From IMG/VR virus record IMGVR_UViG_2703718674_000003: 12,646 bases of DNA, one strand, 5' to 3'. Shown here one piece after another: positions 2,816 to 12,646 of this stretch (position 1 is the stretch's first letter; every line of letters begins with the position of its first letter). The position numbers and the translations under genes were made by a program. Below the pieces are notes generated by a model that worked only from the letters and a program-made list of their open reading frames with translations, had not been told where the DNA came from and did no database searches. This DNA comes from a virus. Its lineage: Duplodnaviria > Heunggongvirae > Uroviricota > Caudoviricetes.

Positions 2816-3573
2816 TCACAACCTCCTTCCCTCCTCCCCGAAACGGACTCCACCGGCGAGGCCCGCCGCCTTCTGCATCAGTACATCATTTTCGTCCGGC
2901 GCCTCCGCCTGTCCTTCCTCTGCCTCCGGAGCGAACAGGCTGAAATCCGCCGGATGCATATCCGGATCGCAAAAAAACAGGCTGAGTACGGCGTACATCA
3001 GCCCGGAAAAATGCATATCCAGCTGGGTATCCTGAAAATAATGCGTGCAGTAAAAACGTCGCCAGTCGGCATATTCGGTGGATGTCATCCCGGCAAGCAT
3101 GGCGCGCCAGTCGGCTCTCCCCATCTCACGCGCCAGTTTCAGGACAAAGTTCAGCTCGCCTTCGAATGCTTTTTTGATGTTACCGGCTCAGTCGCTTCTG
3201 TTTTCCCGGTTGGTTCAGGATCGGCATCGTGCCGGTTATCCAGCATACCTGAAAGATAAAGCACCCGGTTCGTTGCCTGATTCAGTGCATCAGCAGGCCA
3301 TCCCAGCATCACTTCACGGCGGATCTGCTGCATCTCTGTCTCCGGAGAGGCCAGAGTGCCTTTGAGGGAATGGGAATGCCATAGCGACATCGCCACAAGC
3401 AGGGATGCCGTTTCCAGATATCGCTGGTTAATGCGCACGACATCATGCTTCGTTGTCTTCTGTTGTTCTGCGTCTGAAACAAACTTCATATAATCAAACC
3501 GCTGCAGCGCAGACAATTCGGAAAGCGTGACGGACACACCGTTATATTCAAATTGTTCTGTTTTCAGAAACAT
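2816..3573 (-). CDS. T: Tail assembly chaperone G-T fusion made by programmed -1 ribosomal frameshift near the end of G (about 250 aa)
   Basis: A slippery heptamer A AAA AAG (mRNA sense) lies at 3175..3169, 5 codons before the G stop. The -1 frame is open from that point to the TGA at 2818..2816 and encodes AFEGELNLVLKLAREMGRADWRAMLAGM..., corresponding to the 102-aa ORF 2816..3124. Codon phase fits a -1 shift (G frame codon tops are 0 mod 3, T frame 1 mod 3). The position between V/G and H matches the conserved G/G-T arrangement of lambda-like tails. Confidence 0.8.
3151..3573 (-). CDS. G: Tail assembly chaperone G (lambda gpG-like), 140 aa
   Basis: The protein begins MFLKTEQFEYNGVSVTLSELSALQR, near-identical to the lambda gpG N-terminus. 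ATG at 3573 is preceded by GGAGG at 7-nt spacing. Stop TGA at 3153..3151. Confidence 0.9.
   Translation of the reverse strand: MFLKTEQFEYNGVSVTLSELSALQRFDYMKFVSDAEQQKTTKHDVVRINQRYLETASLLVAMSLWHSHSLKGTLASPETEMQQIRREVMLGWPADALNQATNRVLYLSGMLDNRHDADPEPTGKTEATEPVTSKKHSKAS
3169..3175 (-). promoter_or_regulatory. Slippery heptamer A AAA AAG for the G to G-T -1 frameshift
   Basis: Plus strand 3169..3175 is cttttttt-type (c followed by six t), i.e. AAAAAAG on the minus strand in the X XXY YYZ phase of the G frame (UCA AAA AAG). This is a canonical -1 frameshift heptamer, as in E. coli dnaX. Confidence 0.7.
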
Positions 3574-6015: not shown

Positions 6016-8040
6016 TCAGGCCACCGACGAACGCACCAGCCCGCGCCAGTCAAGTGGTGCCACTCCGGCATCAATACGGATTTTTGTGGCAATGCCGTCA
6101 GTGGTGAAACCTTCCTGCTGATCAATGTATGGCGTGTCCACACCATCCAGCCAGGCCACTTCAATGGTGTCAGTGCCCTGTGCCGCCGCCAGATACCAGG
6201 TTTTCGGGTCTGCCGCATCAAGACGCGCTTCTGCAATCACCTCAGCAAAGTTCTGGATAGGGTTAATGACACCGGCGTTTGCATCCGCCCCTTTCACACT
6301 GGCCGATTTGATGGTCTGGTTCGCCACCGTCTCCAGTGCCACCGGTACCAGCATAAAGGCCGGACGGATATTCAGGGCACGATCGCCTTCTTTCTGCAGG
6401 CGCATCATCTGACGGGCCGCATCCAGTCCGGAAACGGAGATCCCCCCGGTGGCAATATTTTTGTGATCGGCATGGAACAGCGCCTTACCGTCGGACAGTT
6501 TCGGGTTATCCGTCAGCACCTTGTAGACCAGGTCACCAATCGTTGCCTTCGCCGCACGCCCCATCTTCATCGGCACGTCCACCAGCATATTCAGATCATC
6601 ATTGATAATGGCCTGGCGGGTGATGGAGAAAATCTCCCCGTAAGTGGCCAGTGCAATGGTCTCCTTGCGATCTGAGGTGGTGATGTATTTATACTCCGCC
6701 CCCTCACGAACCTGGCGCAGAGAACCAAAACCGCCCATCCCCACGCGATACGCTGTTTTGAAGTCTGACAGGCGTCCCTTACGGGTCCACTTCTGGAAGG
6801 TTTCTTCTGATTCCTCCCAGCCCTGGATCAGCCCCTTGTTCGACACATCCAGCAGAATATTGCCAAAATCAGAGGTGCTGTGCGTCAGCGCCAGCCCGAC
6901 CATCTGCATGGGGTTATAACTGGCCACCCCAATACCGCGCTCCGTCAGTGACATGCGAGCCCATTCACGCAGGGTCATCCCGTTATAGGCGTTATCCTTC
7001 TCGACATTTTCAAATCCGGCACGGGCCAGCATCGCCTGGCGGATCCCGTCCCCCACAAAATTGCCGTTTCCGGCATAAATATGGGCCGGTGTATTTTTGT
7101 TGGTCGGCGAGGACTCCTTGCCCATTTCATTCAGCAGTCGTTCACGGGCCATTTCCAGCGAACAGTCAGGATCAGCCACGCACTGTGCCTGAAGCGTCTG
7201 ATAGCGACCACCGAACATGGCAAACAGATCGTTAATGCCTGACATGCGGGCTTTCTGTTCTGCCATAACGCGGGCGCGAATGGTCGCCTCATCAGACACT
7301 GCCGGTACCGGTGATGGTTCTGTTACCGCCGGTGCAGGGATTGTCACTGTGGTATCACGCGGGGCACTGTTGCGTGGCGGAGTAATCATGTTTCGGATGG
7401 ATTCCGGCATCTTTTTAAATTCCTCTGTACGTTTTGACTGAATACATGCCATTGCCTCAACAGCGGGTGTCACCTGGTCAGCAAATCCGTGTGCCAGACA
7501 TTCGGCACCGGACATCCAGGTTTCATCCGCCAGCATGGCGGCAATTTCATCGGTGGTTTTTCCGGTTTTCTGCGCATAGGCTGGCAACAGTACCGATTCG
7601 ACTTTATCCAGCAAATCGGCATAACTGCGCATATCCTCAGCATCCCCGCCACTGAATCCCCATGGCTTATGGATCATCATGAAGGCATTTTCCGGCATAA
7701 TGACCGTATCACCGGCCATCGCAATCACAGATGCCATCGAGGCGGCAACGCCATCCACATACACGGTAATGGTCGCCCCCTGATTTTTCAGGGCATTAAA
7801 AATGGCGATGCCTTCAAAGACATCGCCACCCGGTGAATTGATATGGAGATTAATGTGGGTGATATCACCCAGAGCATTCAGTTCGCTGACAAACTGCTTC
7901 GCGGTAACTCCCCAGAAACCAATCTCGTCATAAATATAAATATCCGCGTCACCCGGCACCCCAGCCTGCATCCTGAACCAGGATTTATTCTTCATGCTGG
8001 CTTTCGGTGTCGCGCTGATACTGTCGTTCAGTTCCGGCAC
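6016..8040 (-). CDS. Fused prohead protease (ClpP/S14-like) - scaffold-like linker - major capsid protein (tripartite capsid gene), about 675 aa
   Basis: The N-terminal region (GDADIYIYDEIGFWGV ... INSPGGDVFEGIAIFNAL ... VDGVAASMASVIAMAGD ... MMIHKPWG) has a ClpP-like serine protease signature. The middle is a Pro/Ala/Glu-rich, likely helical segment. I recall the C-terminal roughly 300 aa as major-capsid-like (Mu gpT-like family). The start is uncertain: GTG at 8040 has an AAAGGAGG Shine-Dalgarno 5 nt upstream, while the alternative ATG at 7995 (MKNKSWF) has no good Shine-Dalgarno. The ORF-track start at 8187 overlaps the portal gene by about 200 nt and is unlikely. Stop is TGA followed by TAA at 6018..6013. 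Confidence 0.85.
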   Translation of the reverse strand: MPELNDSISATPKASMKNKSWFRMQAGVPGDADIYIYDEIGFWGVTAKQFVSELNALGDITHINLHINSPGGDVFEGIAIFNALKNQGATITVYVDGVAASMASVIAMAGDTVIMPENAFMMIHKPWGFSGGDAEDMRSYADLLDKVESVLLPAYAQKTGKTTDEIAAMLADETWMSGAECLAHGFADQVTPAVEAMACIQSKRTEEFKKMPESIRNMITPPRNSAPRDTTVTIPAPAVTEPSPVPAVSDEATIRARVMAEQKARMSGINDLFAMFGGRYQTLQAQCVADPDCSLEMARERLLNEMGKESSPTNKNTPAHIYAGNGNFVGDGIRQAMLARAGFENVEKDNAYNGMTLREWARMSLTERGIGVASYNPMQMVGLALTHSTSDFGNILLDVSNKGLIQGWEESEETFQKWTRKGRLSDFKTAYRVGMGGFGSLRQVREGAEYKYITTSDRKETIALATYGEIFSITRQAIINDDLNMLVDVPMKMGRAAKATIGDLVYKVLTDNPKLSDGKALFHADHKNIATGGISVSGLDAARQMMRLQKEGDRALNIRPAFMLVPVALETVANQTIKSASVKGADANAGVINPIQNFAEVIAEARLDAADPKTWYLAAAQGTDTIEVAWLDGVDTPYIDQQEGFTTDGIATKIRIDAGVAPLDWRGLVRSSVA

Positions 8041-9487
8041 TGTTGCCTCCTTTGTCGTTGACGGGATCCGTATCAAAGACCAGCCCCAGTCTGCTGTTTT
8101 CATCAATTTCAGCCTTGCGGCGACGTTTGACCTCATCCGGATTGCGCCCGCCGGCACGCACCCAGTCAGATTCTGTCGCTGCACCACCCCGGATCTGAAT
8201 TCTCCAGGCTTCAGCTTCCTTAACCGGGTCGATCCACGGCATCACCGGACCGGAATACGTCGCGTTATATAGCGTTTTCATCTCCACATCCGCCGGAATT
8301 TTCAGCAGACCTGCCGCAACCACCATATTCAGCCATGTCCGGTACACCGGGCGGGTTACCGCGCCAATAAAACAGTCCTGCAGGATCAGGTAACCATCCG
8401 TGGACTCGACCAGCTCCTGCCGCTGGGCGCTGTAGGTGCCGTTATAGTTACGCGCCGCACTGGAAAAACTCAGACGACTGCCTGCTGCCACTGCACGCAA
8501 CTGGCCGTTGCGGAAAGTTTCAAGGTTGGGATTGGGACGGTCAGATTTGACCATGCCGATATCCTCGCCCTTGCGCAAATCGTCATAAATAATACCCGGG
8601 GTGATATGGACTTCCCGCTCGGTTTCTTTGATCCCCGGATCTTCATAGTCCTGTCCGTCACCTTTACGGATATACAGTCCCAGCGCCGCAGCAATACGCG
8701 CCGCTGTCAGTTCCGCATCCTCATACTCCTTAAGGGCACTGATCCGCATCAGCACCCCCGATAACATGGATGAGCCTCGCGTCTGGTGCAGACGACGAGT
8801 GAACTTCAGGTGGATCATTTTTCCGGCAGCGATTTCTTTCGTATCACTCTGCCGGCCGCTGACCGGATAATTTTTATAAACCAGATATTTTTTCGGTCTT
8901 CCCCACTCATCAAGAAAAACCCCCTGATTCAGTCCGGCGGATTCATCAGTGCGCATGGGAACAAAATCCGGCTCCATCGCCTCAAGCCAGAATGGCACTC
9001 CCGCCGTCCGTTCCAGACCGTTTCCCGCACCACTGACCATCTGCGCAAACACTTCACCATCCCGCAGCCAGGTCCGCAGCAGTAAACGTTCAAGCACAGG
9101 ACGGGTATACTGCCCTGTCACATCCGGACTCACGGACCATTCAGCCCACAAACGGCGGATATCCGCAGCCAGCTCAGCCGCCATTTCCCCGTTTTTTCGT
9201 AATGGCTGAGGCTCCACAATAATTCCCCTGGCACCAATCACCCGCTCTTCCAGCTTGTCAAACACACCAATCACCAGGTCATGATTGATATCCAGAAAAC
9301 GGGCCTGCTCCCGCAGGGAAACCGCACCGTATTTACTGAGCTGATCAGCAGAGCGATTTTCCCGCCGGGCTTTATGTGTCCGGGTCGGTTTCACCGCCTC
9401 ATAGGCCATGATTAACGCCCTTGAACGCAGTCTGGCTGCTTTCCACCTAGGGGAAAACACGCCGATCACATCATCAATAATTGCCAT
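7985..9487 (-). CDS. B: Portal protein (lambda gpB-like), 500 aa
   Basis: Size and position (immediately after W and the terminase, before the protease-capsid gene) fit a lambda-family portal. The ATG at 9487 overlaps the W stop (TAATG). Confidence 0.9.
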   Translation of the reverse strand: MAIIDDVIGVFSPRWKAARLRSRALIMAYEAVKPTRTHKARRENRSADQLSKYGAVSLREQARFLDINHDLVIGVFDKLEERVIGARGIIVEPQPLRKNGEMAAELAADIRRLWAEWSVSPDVTGQYTRPVLERLLLRTWLRDGEVFAQMVSGAGNGLERTAGVPFWLEAMEPDFVPMRTDESAGLNQGVFLDEWGRPKKYLVYKNYPVSGRQSDTKEIAAGKMIHLKFTRRLHQTRGSSMLSGVLMRISALKEYEDAELTAARIAAALGLYIRKGDGQDYEDPGIKETEREVHITPGIIYDDLRKGEDIGMVKSDRPNPNLETFRNGQLRAVAAGSRLSFSSAARNYNGTYSAQRQELVESTDGYLILQDCFIGAVTRPVYRTWLNMVVAAGLLKIPADVEMKTLYNATYSGPVMPWIDPVKEAEAWRIQIRGGAATESDWVRAGGRNPDEVKRRRKAEIDENSRLGLVFDTDPVNDKGGNSAGTERQYQRDTESQHEE

Positions 9488-9723
9488 TAAAACCTCGCCA
9501 GTTTAAATCCCGGTTTTCCCCGCCTGCGGCTCACCATCGCGGCAAGCCTGCGTTCCCACTCCTGACGTCCGGCGCGGATCTGAGAAAGGCTTTCCAGCGT
9601 CAGTTGCTGCCCGTTGAAGGTGACAGACTTTCCCTCCAGTACGGCCATTTCCGCTTCACGGTACCGCTGTATCATTTCTCTGGCTTCTTCTGTGCTCACA
9701 ACCAGCCTCCTGATGTTATCCAT
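9487..9723 (-). CDS. W: Head-tail joining protein (lambda gpW-like), 78 aa
   Basis: The C-terminus ...MVSRRRGKPGF resembles the lambda gpW C-terminus (...QRRRGPAGFYV), and the length is similar. It sits between terminase large subunit and portal as in lambda. The ATG at 9723 overlaps the 3' end of the terminase gene by 28 nt. Confidence 0.8.
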   Translation of the reverse strand: MDNIRRLVVSTEEAREMIQRYREAEMAVLEGKSVTFNGQQLTLESLSQIRAGRQEWERRLAAMVSRRRGKPGFKLARF

Positions 9724-11819
9724 GGATTATCTTCCGCACGCTCCGTCCGCAGTTTTTTCTTCCGGCGACGGCGTTTTTCTGCCCCGGCCGTCAGTTCCGG
9801 GGATACCGTTTCACCAGAACGCTCCTGCGGGAAGACGAGCCACGTTTCCCGCTGTGCCCAGTCCGGTGCGGAGGGCCAGCGGATCTTTTCGTAACCATGC
9901 AGAACGGCAAGCGCATCCGCATAAACCAGCAGGTCAAACGCTTCGTTAGCGCCCCTGCCCGGTTTTCGCCATTTTCCGTCACTGCCGCGCTCTTCATAGG
10001 TCAGCTCATCGTAAAACCACCGCCCCAGCCAGTCGGGAAAGTGGATATAGTTCGGCCCTGGTGTGTCACGCCACAGGGCATTATTTACACGATCCTTAAA
10101 CGCATCCGTCTGAACCAGCCACAGCGCGACATCGCCACTGGCTCTGGCACGGCGGGCACTTCTGCCGGTATTATCCGGGAAGGTTCGGTTAATCAGCCTG
10201 TCACGGCGAAGTCCATCCCCCTTGAACAGAAACACCCTGTTGCCCAGTCCGTCACTCCGGCAACGACGCCAGAAACGATAGGCGTTATCTGTCACCCCGG
10301 CTTCCCCTCCCGTATCCACCGCCATGGCCATCAGACGCATGCGCACATCCGGATCAGAAGCCAGCGGCCATGTTTTATGGAACACATCCGTCAGCAACAA
10401 ATCCCAGTCCTCCGGATATGCCGCCGGATCAACCGGCAGACTTTCACCGTTGGGACTGCAGCGCAGTGAATGCCGGATGTTGTAGCGATCAACAATCCAG
10501 CGTTCCCCCTGCTCTCCGTATCCGGTGATCTGCACAACAAAACGGCGATTTTTACCGCCCTGTACGTCAACCGTTGCCTCAATAAAACGCACACCATCCG
10601 GCACAGATCGCCGGGGAAACGGCTCGGCACGCTGTTCAAGCAGTTCACTTTTACGCTGTTCCGTGGCTGAACGGGGCAGATAGGGTCGTCCGATATCGGT
10701 GTTCACCACCGCTTTCAGGGTCTCTTCACTGCCGGTTCGCTCATACTCTTCTTCTGCCGCCAGCAGTTTAAAAATCAGTTGTTCCCAGGTCTGAAACGCC
10801 GCAGCTGGCCCCTCCATCCAAAATGACGCAATCCGGGAGTTTCGTGGCGTTCCGGTGATACTGCCGTCCGCCGCCGCCCGTTCACCTTCACGAAGCCAGA
10901 TCCCCTGGTTATTCAGTTCGCGTTTCTGCTCAGGGGCAATCAGCCCGCGACAATGCGGACACATCAGACGGGCAGCCTGACCGGCAGCCACAAAATCCGG
11001 GTTATTCCGGTATCCGGTCATGTTATCCATCACCGGCTGAAAATATTCCCCGCAGTGCGGACACGGCCAGTACCACCGGCGGCGGTCTCCCCGGTTATAC
11101 AGTGACAGGATCCCCGTTGTTGGCGGTGCCTCATGTGCGCCACCACAACGCCATTTGGTATCGGTGATATCCCGCCCCGGTGAACTCTCGACCAGGGTCA
11201 TCCCCGAAGACATAAAGGTGGTGGTACGCTTTGAGGCCAGCGTGAAGGCATCCCCTTCCCCGTCCACGTTTTCAGGGAAACGGTCATAATCCGTCAGCGC
11301 CACACGACGGTAATCCGAAGAGGAAAAGACGGTGATCGACGGCCAGCCAATCTTCAGGAAGGAGCCGTCAAGAAACATTTTATCGTGGACGTTGTTGTCA
11401 TTACGGGAAGGACTGAGGCGCTTGCTGACCTCCGGACTGTGGCGAAACGTCCTGGAAAGACGCGTTCTGGAATGCTCACGCGCCTTCGTCTCAGTCATCT
11501 GCACCACCAGCATATCCGCCGGATCACAGATGATGCCGTACACAATCCAGCCATCAATCAGCCCTTCGGTTTTCCCGGTTCGCGCAGGTCCCACAAACAC
11601 CACCGCGTCATATTCACGGGCTGATAATGTATTAATGGGGTCAATCATATAGGGCGTCAGCGATGACTCCCACGGACCGGAAGTATTGGCTCCCCGTGGA
11701 ACCCGCATATAACGCCTGATGGCTTCCGCTACTGGTAACCGGCTGGGTGGGCGAAACAGCGAGGCCACTTCGCGCCAGATATCGGATGCGCGGCTATGGC
11801 TCTCGTTCACCTGATTCAC
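9696..11819 (-). CDS. A: Terminase large subunit (lambda gpA family), 707 aa
   Basis: The N-terminal SLFRP motif is shared with lambda gpA; a Walker A-like VFVGPARTGKTEG is present, and paired CPHCG motifs (CPHCGEYF, CPHCRG) suggest a zinc-binding region. The start is a GTG at 11819 that directly overlaps the small-subunit stop (minus strand reads ATG TGA, with GTG in the other frame); the next in-frame ATG would delete the conserved N-terminus. Confidence 0.92.
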   Translation of the reverse strand: MNQVNESHSRASDIWREVASLFRPPSRLPVAEAIRRYMRVPRGANTSGPWESSLTPYMIDPINTLSAREYDAVVFVGPARTGKTEGLIDGWIVYGIICDPADMLVVQMTETKAREHSRTRLSRTFRHSPEVSKRLSPSRNDNNVHDKMFLDGSFLKIGWPSITVFSSSDYRRVALTDYDRFPENVDGEGDAFTLASKRTTTFMSSGMTLVESSPGRDITDTKWRCGGAHEAPPTTGILSLYNRGDRRRWYWPCPHCGEYFQPVMDNMTGYRNNPDFVAAGQAARLMCPHCRGLIAPEQKRELNNQGIWLREGERAAADGSITGTPRNSRIASFWMEGPAAAFQTWEQLIFKLLAAEEEYERTGSEETLKAVVNTDIGRPYLPRSATEQRKSELLEQRAEPFPRRSVPDGVRFIEATVDVQGGKNRRFVVQITGYGEQGERWIVDRYNIRHSLRCSPNGESLPVDPAAYPEDWDLLLTDVFHKTWPLASDPDVRMRLMAMAVDTGGEAGVTDNAYRFWRRCRSDGLGNRVFLFKGDGLRRDRLINRTFPDNTGRSARRARASGDVALWLVQTDAFKDRVNNALWRDTPGPNYIHFPDWLGRWFYDELTYEERGSDGKWRKPGRGANEAFDLLVYADALAVLHGYEKIRWPSAPDWAQRETWLVFPQERSGETVSPELTAGAEKRRRRKKKLRTERAEDNPWITSGGWL

Positions 11820-12292
11820 ATATCGGCCTCATCACAACAGTCAATGACTGCCTTTTCCAGTGTGTCGCGGATCTCATCAACCACAATCTGTACTTCATTC
11901 AGTTGTGATGCAGTCCACCCCCTGTCCCTCTCCAGCCGGTCAGGCCAGGTTTCCAGTACCTGAACTATCGCTTTCACCACGACAGAAAAGGACCGCCTGA
12001 CATCACTGACTGGCACAAGCTGAACAGTTTCATGCTGAAATTTAAGACGCTCGCGCTCGGACTGATACCATGCCTTACGAGCGTGAGGATCCATATCCTC
12101 ATCTTCGGAAGATGGTGGTTTTTCCAGCAACGAAGTTATCAAATCCGTCAGGAGATACAGTTTTTTCTTTTCATTACTGCCTGGTGCAAGAGGAACATCC
12201 GCCATTCTGGCGGCAACAGTCTGCCGGTGCAGACCTGAAAGGGCTGCCAGTTGATTAATATTTAACTTCATATTTTTCAGCTCGCCGTCCAT
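11816..12292 (-). CDS. Nu1: Terminase small subunit (lambda Nu1-like, N-terminal DNA-binding helix-turn-helix), 158 aa
   Basis: The N-terminus MKLNINQLAALSGLHRQTVAARM resembles the Nu1 helix-turn-helix (VNKKQLADIFGASIRTIQNW). The gene lies immediately upstream of, and is coupled to, the large subunit. ATG at 12292 is preceded by GGAGGG at 6-nt spacing; an alternative ATG at 12271 aligns with the Nu1 start but has a weaker Shine-Dalgarno. Confidence 0.82.
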   Translation of the reverse strand: MDGELKNMKLNINQLAALSGLHRQTVAARMADVPLAPGSNEKKKLYLLTDLITSLLEKPPSSEDEDMDPHARKAWYQSERERLKFQHETVQLVPVSDVRRSFSVVVKAIVQVLETWPDRLERDRGWTASQLNEVQIVVDEIRDTLEKAVIDCCDEADM

Positions 12293-12370
12293 TTACATCC
12301 CTCCACATAAACCGCAGAACAGAAGTGACTCTGTTTTTTTGTAAAGAAATGCCGCCATATAAAGATGTCG

Positions 12371-12510
12371 AACAAAAAACAACCACAACCATCATCTTTT
12401 TAATACTAACAGCATTAAAAACAACAAGTTACCATCATGATGATGATGACGATAAAATCACAAAAATGCGCCTTTTTCCGCGCCGCCCGCCCCGTGTTCA
12501 GGCCCACCCC
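12371..12510 (-). other. Candidate cos region (cosN-like GC-rich core plus A/T-rich cosB-like repeats)
   Basis: On the gene strand, 12495..12478 reads ACGGGGCGGGCGGCGCGG, which shares ACGGGGCGG with the lambda cosN junction (TTACGGGGCGGCGACCTCGCGG). It lies about 190 nt upstream of the terminase small subunit start, the same spacing as cosN to Nu1 in lambda. The A/T-rich DNA between it and the gene has two imperfect direct repeats ending in ACCATCAT (12371..12395 and 12417..12439). Confidence 0.4.
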
Positions 12511-12646
12511 ACCAGGAGGACCCGCAAAAAATGATAATGGTTATCATTTGCAACAAAATCCAGTTTCTTCCACCATCGCACCGGACTGGCGACTATGAGG
12601 GGACAACACCGCGCTCCGTTAACGCGGTAAACCCCGGTGTGTATCG

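Follow-up and report, generated by a model that had tools for sequence, protein, structure and literature searches.

Where does the terminase encoded by this viral DNA cut the genome that it packages? The stretch analysed here (IMG/VR record IMGVR_UViG_2703718674_000003), which we call the window, is 12,646 nt long, and a preliminary description of it had proposed a candidate cohesive-end (cos) site of a gpA-type terminase in a lambda-like position, just upstream of the gene for the small terminase subunit (TerS). The proposal holds up. We conclude that 12361..12523 on the minus strand is very probably the cohesive-end site of a VT1-Sakai/Sp15-type lambdoid prophage, with the lambda layout cosQ-cosN-cosB; the conclusion is based on observed homology to lambda cosQ and cosN, on position, on a conservation footprint and on the ends of relatives' sequence records. 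The 397 nt around the site are 99% identical to the Stx1 prophage VT1-Sakai (Sp15) of Escherichia coli O157:H7 Sakai (AP000400.1) and 100% identical to prophages of several complete genomes of Shiga-toxin-producing E. coli (STEC); an exact copy is found, for instance, in E. coli 2014C-3061 (NZ_CP027548.1, 1,410,006-1,410,402). The window thus belongs to a lambdoid prophage of the VT1-Sakai/Sp15 type from Shiga-toxin E. coli.

Identification of cosN and cosQ

The gene strand (the minus strand, on which all features below lie) reads ACGGGGCGGGCGGCGCGG at 12495..12478, letter for letter as first described, and shares with the lambda cosN junction the identical 9-mer ACGGGGCGG (...GGTTACG^GGGCGGCGACCT in NC_001416.1; carets mark nicks, mapped or presumed). 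The left half of cosN, CG^GGGCGG, is identical to that of lambda, one of the features by which lambda-like cos sites are defined; another is a gpA-type large subunit (TerL) encoded beside the site, and this too is present. With its left flank, this half forms CACG^GGGCGG (12487..12496), in which the top-strand nick presumably falls between 12493 and 12492, and the block is nearly invariant among 37 unique relatives. The window continues as CACG^GGGCGGGCGG^CGCGGAAAAAGG, that is, with a 10-nt interval, GGGCGGGCGG (12483..12492), which would be the 5' cohesive end if the nicks follow the flanks, and a right flank, CGCGGAAAAAGG (12471..12482), which is invariant in the relatives. The spacer that follows, CGCATTTTTGTGATTTT (12454..12470), separates cosN from the R3 element of cosB and is 100% conserved in the same 37 sequences (group A below).

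The right half of cosN had been reported to differ from that of lambda, and indeed the cohesive end would be unlike lambda's under any model of the nicks. The distance of about 190 bp to the start of the terminase genes, described as lambda-like, is also correct: it is 190 nt to the TerS ATG (12292) if counted after the 10-nt interval and 200 nt if counted from the overhang's first G (12492); lambda nu1 starts at bp 191. To call cosN the only strongly GC-rich block of the upstream region was a slight overstatement, as the 27 nt immediately before it, which run from cosQ to cosN, are rich in G+C too. A literature search with the motif GGGCGGGCGG returned unrelated papers only.

The site as first described lacked cosQ, which in lambda is the packaging-termination signal. 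The heptamer GGGTCCT, overlooked at 12517..12523, is identical to lambda cosQ (sequence given in the supplement of PMC2669165) and starts 31 nt upstream of the presumed top-strand nick, compared with 30 nt in lambda. The window has a single copy of the composite GGGTCCT-N(18-30)-ACGGGGCGG, and none of 200 dinucleotide-preserving shuffles has any, so the combination of cosQ with the left half of cosN is far beyond chance. Upstream of cosQ, a further conserved block, ATGATAACCATTATCAT (12531..12547), is homologous to lambda ATGATAATCATTATCAC in an alignment to the lambda right end, and is also found in an Stx1a phage with a true lambda-type cos.

A mosaic joint lies at cosQ. Many Stx1a-converting phages share 130 nt with the window (12517..12646, GGGTCCT included) at about 92% identity, and this homology stops exactly at the last base of cosQ. 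In LC645428.1 (701-1130), a true lambda cosN (GGGCGGCGACCT) comes next after cosQ, with cosB and Nu1 of lambda too. One cosQ-bearing segment is therefore found joined to two different packaging modules, which makes the heptamer of the window the positional equivalent of lambda cosQ. Judged from these alignments, cosQ acts as a recombination boundary, with the lysis module on one side and, on the other, either of two packaging modules.

The second line of evidence for the position of the nicks comes from the relatives. A TerS relative is encoded in 56 phage records, and in several of these the sequence has been opened at the corresponding position. Those of cdtI and Tritos start with GGGCGGGAGCGT^CGCGGAAAAAGG and end with ...CACG; that of LLS starts with GGGCGGCGCGCT^CGCGGG, these 12 nt being annotated as a 5' cohesive end; and that of Hafnia phage yong2 starts at CGCGGG. 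The Cr-LKS3 record starts with GGGCTCGCG^CGCGGAAG, and 9-nt 5' extensions are reported to have been determined experimentally for this phage (PMC9303873). Immediately after the cohesive end, lambda, LLS, cdtI, Tritos and Cr-LKS3 all have the homologous CGCGG(G/A), and the yong2 record opens on it. Since relatives' records open or close at homologous positions, both cosN flanks of the window are, by alignment, the nick flanks of the TerS family.

These homologies also bear on the reading that the locus is no packaging site at all, its G+C-rich block and A/T-rich repeats being instead a late-operon promoter, operator or terminator region of a phage that packages by the headful (pac) mechanism. 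One weak sigma-70-like match, on the opposite strand, and a marginal leader hairpin near the ribosome-binding site (z = -1.86) could be read in this way. A search for a terminator-like site found none, TerL carries both gpA domains, typical of 5'-cos phages, and the match to lambda cosQ, to cosN and to the relatives' record ends is base for base. We regard this reading as very improbable.

A putative cosB between cosN and the terminase genes

To delimit cosB we aligned the 37 unique cos regions of the same cosB type (group A). Blocks that are fully invariant alternate with variable spacers, and they correspond to cosQ-cosN, R3, I1, R2 and R1. The first runs unbroken from the right flank of cosN through R3, CGCGGAAAAAGGCGCATTTTTGTGATTTTATCGT(CAT)4 (12482..12437). 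It contains an invariant R3-like element, ATCGT(CAT)4 (12437..12453, with (CAT)4 at 12448..12437), the predicted binding element of the small terminase subunit. R3 starts 44 nt from the presumed top-strand (left) nick, and 44-47 nt from it in relatives. Lambda R3 is placed at bp 50-65 (PMC9026076), and the title of a study cited there (Higgins & Becker 1994) reports a nick 47±2 bp from an R site. The preliminary description had located cosB only in part: it had missed (CAT)4, the strongest element, along with the IHF-like site described below.

(CAT)4 stands at the same place in Fels-1, LLS and yong2; relatives with a different TerS helix-turn-helix have CACCATCACCACCA, CATCACCAC or GGCGGCGGC there instead. 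The R3 motif tracks this helix-turn-helix, HRQTVA occurring with (CAT)4, HRQTAA with CATCACCAC and HRDTVKK with GGCGGCGGC. Such co-change is in keeping with TerS recognising R3, although it does not amount to a formal test. The elements at the R3 position, about 32-35 nt after the CGCGG flank (loci L003, L005-L008, L058, L090, L093 and L096), are also short triplet-periodic runs, namely (CAT)4, CACCATCACCACCA, GGCGGCGGC and CAGCAACAG, and these runs change with the predicted TerS recognition helix.

Between R3 and R2 lies a conserved block resembling I1, the site for integration host factor (IHF): GTAAnnTGTTGTTTTTAA / GTAACTTGTTGTTTTTAA (12415..12432). Its core (12431..12419) matches the IHF consensus WATCAANNNNTTR with one mismatch, a quality of match that occurs four times in the whole window; the consensus is perfect at this position in group-B relatives, mEp460, cdtI and Proteus prophages. 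The invariant R2-like element, AAAAAGATGATGG / AAAAAGATGATG(G) (12389..12401), is conserved in Fels-1 as AAAAGATGATGA and is an inverted copy of the R3 CATCATC motif, so that R2 and the R3 region form an inverted-repeat pair. The R1-like element, TTTTTGTTCGACATCTTT (12361..12378), is invariant as well and is a degenerate direct copy in the orientation of R3; Fels-1 has TTGTTCATCATCTT at this position, with CATCATC. The order R3-I1-R2-R1 has been described for lambda, 21, phi80 and Gifsy-1 (PMC4669245, PMC9026076), and the conservation footprint and motif orientation appear to fit the lambda layout of R3, I1, inverted R2 and R1.

In the place of these elements, two imperfect direct repeats (12371..12395 and 12417..12439) had been proposed to occupy the R-site positions. 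The exact part of the repeat is only the 8-mer ACCATCAT, at 12388-12395 and 12431-12438; the 23-25 nt versions align only with gaps, and the second was drawn one base too long (12439 is a G). An exact 8-mer pair is expected about 0.4 times by chance in 238 nt by our own arithmetic, so the ACCATCAT repeat alone is not significant. As to position, the first repeat does contain the conserved R2-like AAAAAGATGATGG. The second is not conserved: its ACCATCAT end falls in the 4 nt after (CAT)4, which vary among close relatives (GATG, TAGT, GTGT, GTAT), and this copy is therefore not a conserved element; the remainder of this repeat is the IHF-like site.

The small subunit, a proposed mechanism and packaging specificity

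The terminase had been described as of the lambda gpA/Nu1 type. The gpA part is borne out by the domains of TerL (PF05876 and PF20454); the Nu1 part is not, since TerS belongs to DUF1441/phrog_141 and not to the Phage_Nu1 family (PF07471). DUF1441 (PF07278) matches TerS with E = 3.8e-48 (163.6 bits) and is the sole Pfam family above the curated threshold, with HTH_30 below threshold (E = 0.028); the match to phrog_141 has E = 6e-66. TerS gave no match to PF07471 even at E <= 10, and no BLASTP alignment to lambda Nu1. PHROG profiles do cross-match reciprocally and over nearly the full length, TerS to phrog_57, the lambda Nu1 family (1.8e-10), and Nu1 to phrog_141 (5.6e-8); the Nu1 query sequence was validated by a 333-bit full-length match to PF07471. 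Because of this reciprocity, the two proteins are probably remote homologues, with TerS lying outside PF07471. Searching the PDB with the TerS sequence gave noise only, and a single-sequence AlphaFold2 model (mean predicted local distance difference test score 54.5, with the N-terminal part below 50) was too poor for use.

By analogy with lambda we infer how proteins might bind the site, how IHF might be used and where the nicks might lie. Dimers of the DUF1441 TerS would bind the mutually inverted R3 and R2 of the CATCAT type, with IHF bending the DNA at the site between them and so bringing them together, and R1 might serve as a third, weaker TerS site. Bound TerS would hold the gpA-type large subunit in place on cosN, some 44 bp away, where this subunit would make two staggered nicks and so leave a 5' overhang beginning with GGGCGG at 12492. 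cosQ would then end packaging at the next cos along the concatemer.

The preliminary description had taken the different cohesive end to mean a distinct packaging specificity. This step is unsound. What sets the specificity of lambda-like phages is the contact of TerS with cosB, the terminases tested show no specificity for cosN, and variant right halves are well documented among lambda-like cos sites (PMC4669245). A distinct packaging specificity is likely nonetheless, because both cosB and TerS differ from those of lambda. Once the cos site of Sp15-type prophages is known, one can say which terminase is able to package which prophages of a Shiga-toxin E. coli strain, and such compatibility bears on the spread of stx and effector genes between strains.

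Length of the interval and of the cohesive end

How long the cohesive end is depends on how the nicks are set, and the interval from CACG^ to ^CGCGG varies. It is 12 bp in lambda, cdtI, Tritos, LLS, Fels-1, mEp460 and Proteus prophages (in the DUF1441 lambdoid phages the 12-nt intervals are GGGCGGGAGCGT, GGGCGGCGCGCT and GGGCGGCAGCGG), 10 bp in the window and most of its IMG/VR relatives, and 11 bp in VT1-Sakai, where cosN carries one extra G (GGGCGGGCGGG), and in others. Occasional members of the window's own clade have 12 bp or 7 bp, the latter at one locus, and the interval of Cr-LKS3, with its experimentally mapped ends, is 9 nt (PMC9303873). This cos type is present in some 550 of the 5426 complete genomes of E. 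coli; the exact 72-nt sequence of the 10-bp form is present in 60 records of complete genomes and the exact 73-nt sequence of the 11-bp form in 270, and the length variation is therefore real and not a sequencing artefact. Intervals of 7, 10, 11 and 12 bp occur among loci with identical or near-identical TerS, including loci at which it is 100% identical. The distance from the right flank to R3 is fixed and does not compensate for interval length. The 10-nt form is shared by two cosB/TerS types that have diverged from each other, with 78% identity in TerS.

Our best guess, in which our confidence falls a little short of even, is that the nicks follow the conserved CG^...^CGCGG flanks, which would give the 10-nt end GGGCGGGCGG here and an 11-nt end in Sakai. 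We favour it because of the Cr-LKS3 precedent, the invariant right flank, and the loss of the CG flank from the 11-bp form if the stagger were fixed. Such a fixed stagger, 12 nt from the left nick, would yield from the same cos site the cohesive end GGGCGGGCGGCG (12492..12481), essentially what the preliminary description had implied; a 12-nt end is possible in the window only with the right nick moved into the conserved flank, and the bottom-strand nick would then fall two bases inside an otherwise conserved CGCGG. The cohesive end of lambda is 12 nt long, and the same length is annotated or implied for LLS, cdtI and Tritos. A CG dinucleotide would still follow the end (...GCG^CGGAA), and the geometry would equal that of Fels-1, with 44 nt from the left nick and 32 nt from the right nick to R3. 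Three observations argue the other way: in VT1-Sakai, with an 11-nt interval and an identical TerS, the nick would precede GC instead of CG; in Cr-LKS3, from the wider family, a shorter interval goes with a shorter, 9-nt overhang followed directly by CGCGGAA (PMC9303873); and interval lengths of 7, 10, 11 and 12 nt are all found beside an unchanging flank, CGCGGAAAAAGG. Twofold symmetry does not discriminate, since the counts for overhangs of 10, 11, 12 and 13 nt are equal (5/11 for the fixed stagger, 5/10 for the 10-nt end). Overall we consider a fixed stagger nearly as likely as nicks that follow the flanks.

The prediction of flank-following nicks can be extended to the whole of this large prophage clade of enterohaemorrhagic E. 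coli (EHEC) and STEC, where cohesive ends may be 10 or 11 nt and not 12, with lengths that differ between prophages with identical terminases; we put this forward tentatively, as possible and short of probable. If it is true, the gpA-type enzyme sets both nicks by the flanks CG^...^CGCGG and has no fixed stagger. Recombination between prophages with 10-nt and 11-nt ends in one cell would then give chromosomes whose ends do not anneal with each other, a hidden barrier to compatibility in the 'defective prophage pool'. In either case, the natural variation of cosN between 10, 11 and 12 bp among near-identical terminases offers a ready test of how gpA-type enzymes choose their nicks.

Interval length is also seen to vary elsewhere in the family. 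mEp460_4F5 (LR595868.1, 1-25) differs from mEp460 (JQ182728.1, 1526-1550) by 3 bp in cosN, GGGCGGGAG^CGCGG versus GGGCGGGAGCGG^CGCGG; this 9-nt rather than 12-nt interval is either a natural variant or an assembly artefact at genome ends, and we left it unused. Gifsy-2 (NC_010393.1, ~300-330) has a divergent cosN, CCACG^GGTGGCTTCGGGCT^CGCGGG, with 14 bp between the conserved flanks, so that the interval varies both ways within the family; its cosQ-like sequence is GGTACTCC. Natural cosN variation was reportedly surveyed by Vahanian et al. 2017 (Virology 509:140).

A short interval could also be a sign of decay, the loss of 2 bp from cosN having crippled cleavage and left a relic in a defective prophage that is packaged through other prophages or not at all. 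Many O157-type lambdoid prophages are in fact defective, Sp15 itself has morphogenesis defects (PMC2669165), and the interval departs from the 12 nt of the relatives, down to 7 nt at one locus. We nonetheless think decay unlikely. The 10-nt and 11-nt forms recur exactly in the 60 and 270 complete genomes mentioned above, the former with both of the diverged cosB/TerS types. Among 37 unique sequences the spacers vary but the flanks and cosB blocks do not, a pattern that speaks for ongoing selection, and the terminase, portal and head reading frames of the window are all intact. In O157 Sakai, moreover, Sp15 DNA was packaged into DNase-resistant particles (PMC2669165); since Sp15 has an identical TerS and the 11-bp interval, an interval other than 12 bp is compatible with packaging.

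Several points weigh against the identification of a working cos site. Defects are common among the prophages of this pool (PMC2669165). The interval is 10 bp, not the 12 bp that define lambda-like cohesive ends (PMC4669245); the window thus departs from one literal criterion, and its nick positions are therefore not readable from sequence. Within cosB, the IHF-like site is mismatched to the consensus and R1 is degenerate. As to the record ends, that of LLS was explicitly inferred, following Feiss's analysis of mEp213 (PMC12315714), and the cdtI, Tritos and yong2 records give no visible basis for theirs; no phage record, IMG/VR contig or metagenome contig of the exact cos type ends at the site, and virion ends have been mapped for no member of the clade. 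Finally, the group-A relatives are closely related, and part of their conservation may reflect recent common ancestry. Matches to an 18-mer in metagenomes were mostly to unrelated sequences, and a contig scan, made with a single protein, yielded three Proteus loci only, outgroups that added little diversity. Taken with the evidence above, we conclude that the site is a genuine, ordinary lambda-like cos in a very common prophage family.

Genome context

All genes of the window lie on the minus strand, and their order is that of lambda: TerS, gpA-type TerL, head-tail adaptor, lambda-type portal, a fusion of ClpP-type protease and capsid, decoration protein, and tail genes up to the tape measure. 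TerS (11816..12292, 158 aa) begins at the ATG at 12292, preceded by the ribosome-binding site GGAGG (12304..12300). Its stop overlaps the start of TerL, and it lies directly upstream of this gpA-type gene, as is expected of the DUF1441/phrog_141 small subunits of lambdoid phages (cdtI, mEp213, Fels-1, Gifsy-2). TerL (9696..11819) is of the lambda gpA type, with ATPase and endonuclease domains (PF05876, 1.8e-81; PF20454, 6.2e-84).

The leader between R1 and the TerS start (12293..12360) is strongly conserved and contains a 6-bp inverted repeat, AACAGA and TCTGTT, as hairpin arms (12335..12318). Folding of the RNA is predicted to take the GGAGG ribosome-binding site into a longer stem, with a stability that is marginal against shuffles (z = -1.86), and the modelled fold may control TerS translation.

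Two features of the head and tail genes deserve mention. At 6016..8187 a single 723-aa frame fuses a ClpP-type prohead protease with a major capsid domain, as in heads of the Gifsy-2 type; with the listed GTG start the frame would overlap the portal gene by some 200 nt, and this start probably lies too far upstream, because the PHROG match starts at residue 63. The neighbouring frames at 2816..3124 and 3151..3573 cover the first and the second half, respectively, of the 290-position phrog_32165 ('minor tail protein'), and the downstream frame of the pair also matches phrog_39 (tail assembly protein). Such a two-frame pattern is usual for tail-assembly chaperone pairs made by programmed frameshift (lambda G/GT).

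Comparison with known systems

Among the closest known systems is VT1-Sakai (Sp15), whose TerS is 100% identical and whose cos region is 99% identical over 397 nt. Its record (AP000400.1) has no cos annotated and labels the TerS gene 'hypothetical protein'. Among the prophages of the same strain, putative cos sites were aligned for Sp4 and Sp14 only, which are of the true Nu1 type (PMC2669165), and the phage examined in a PhageTerm study of Stx phages was a different one, of the 3'-cos type.

With lambda the site shares an identical cosQ, the identical ACG^GGGCGG, a CG flanking each presumed nick, a small-subunit gene about 190-200 nt downstream, a gpA-type large subunit, and what appears to be the same cosB plan, in which three copies of a conserved motif include an inverted one in the middle and an IHF-like site separates the first copy from the second. 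It differs in the interval's right half, which is unrelated to the CGACCT of lambda, in the interval length of 10 bp versus 12, in its R motifs of the CATCAT type, and in its small subunit of DUF1441/phrog_141 instead of PF07471. The head genes differ as well, being of the Gifsy-2 type with fused protease and capsid.

The lambdoid phages with a DUF1441 small subunit (cdtI, Tritos, mEp213/LLS, mEp460, Fels-1 and yong2) have TerS proteins of the same family, at 37-57% identity, and share the left flank CCACG^GGGCGG, the right-flank motif CGCGG(G/A)A..GGC...TTTTT and the place of the IHF site. Their interval is 12 nt, whereas that of the window's clade is 10 or 11, and the cosB spacers and R motifs vary by sub-group. 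A distant relative is the cyanophage Cr-LKS3, with a TerS-family member of 32% identity. Its overhang begins with GGGC and is followed directly by CGCGGAA. It differs in its unrelated host, a genome of 66% G+C, a short cosB (TerS starts at bp 95) and an overhang, GGGCTCGCG, of only 9 nt. Cr-LKS3 thus shows that overhangs shorter than 12 nt exist in this TerS family.

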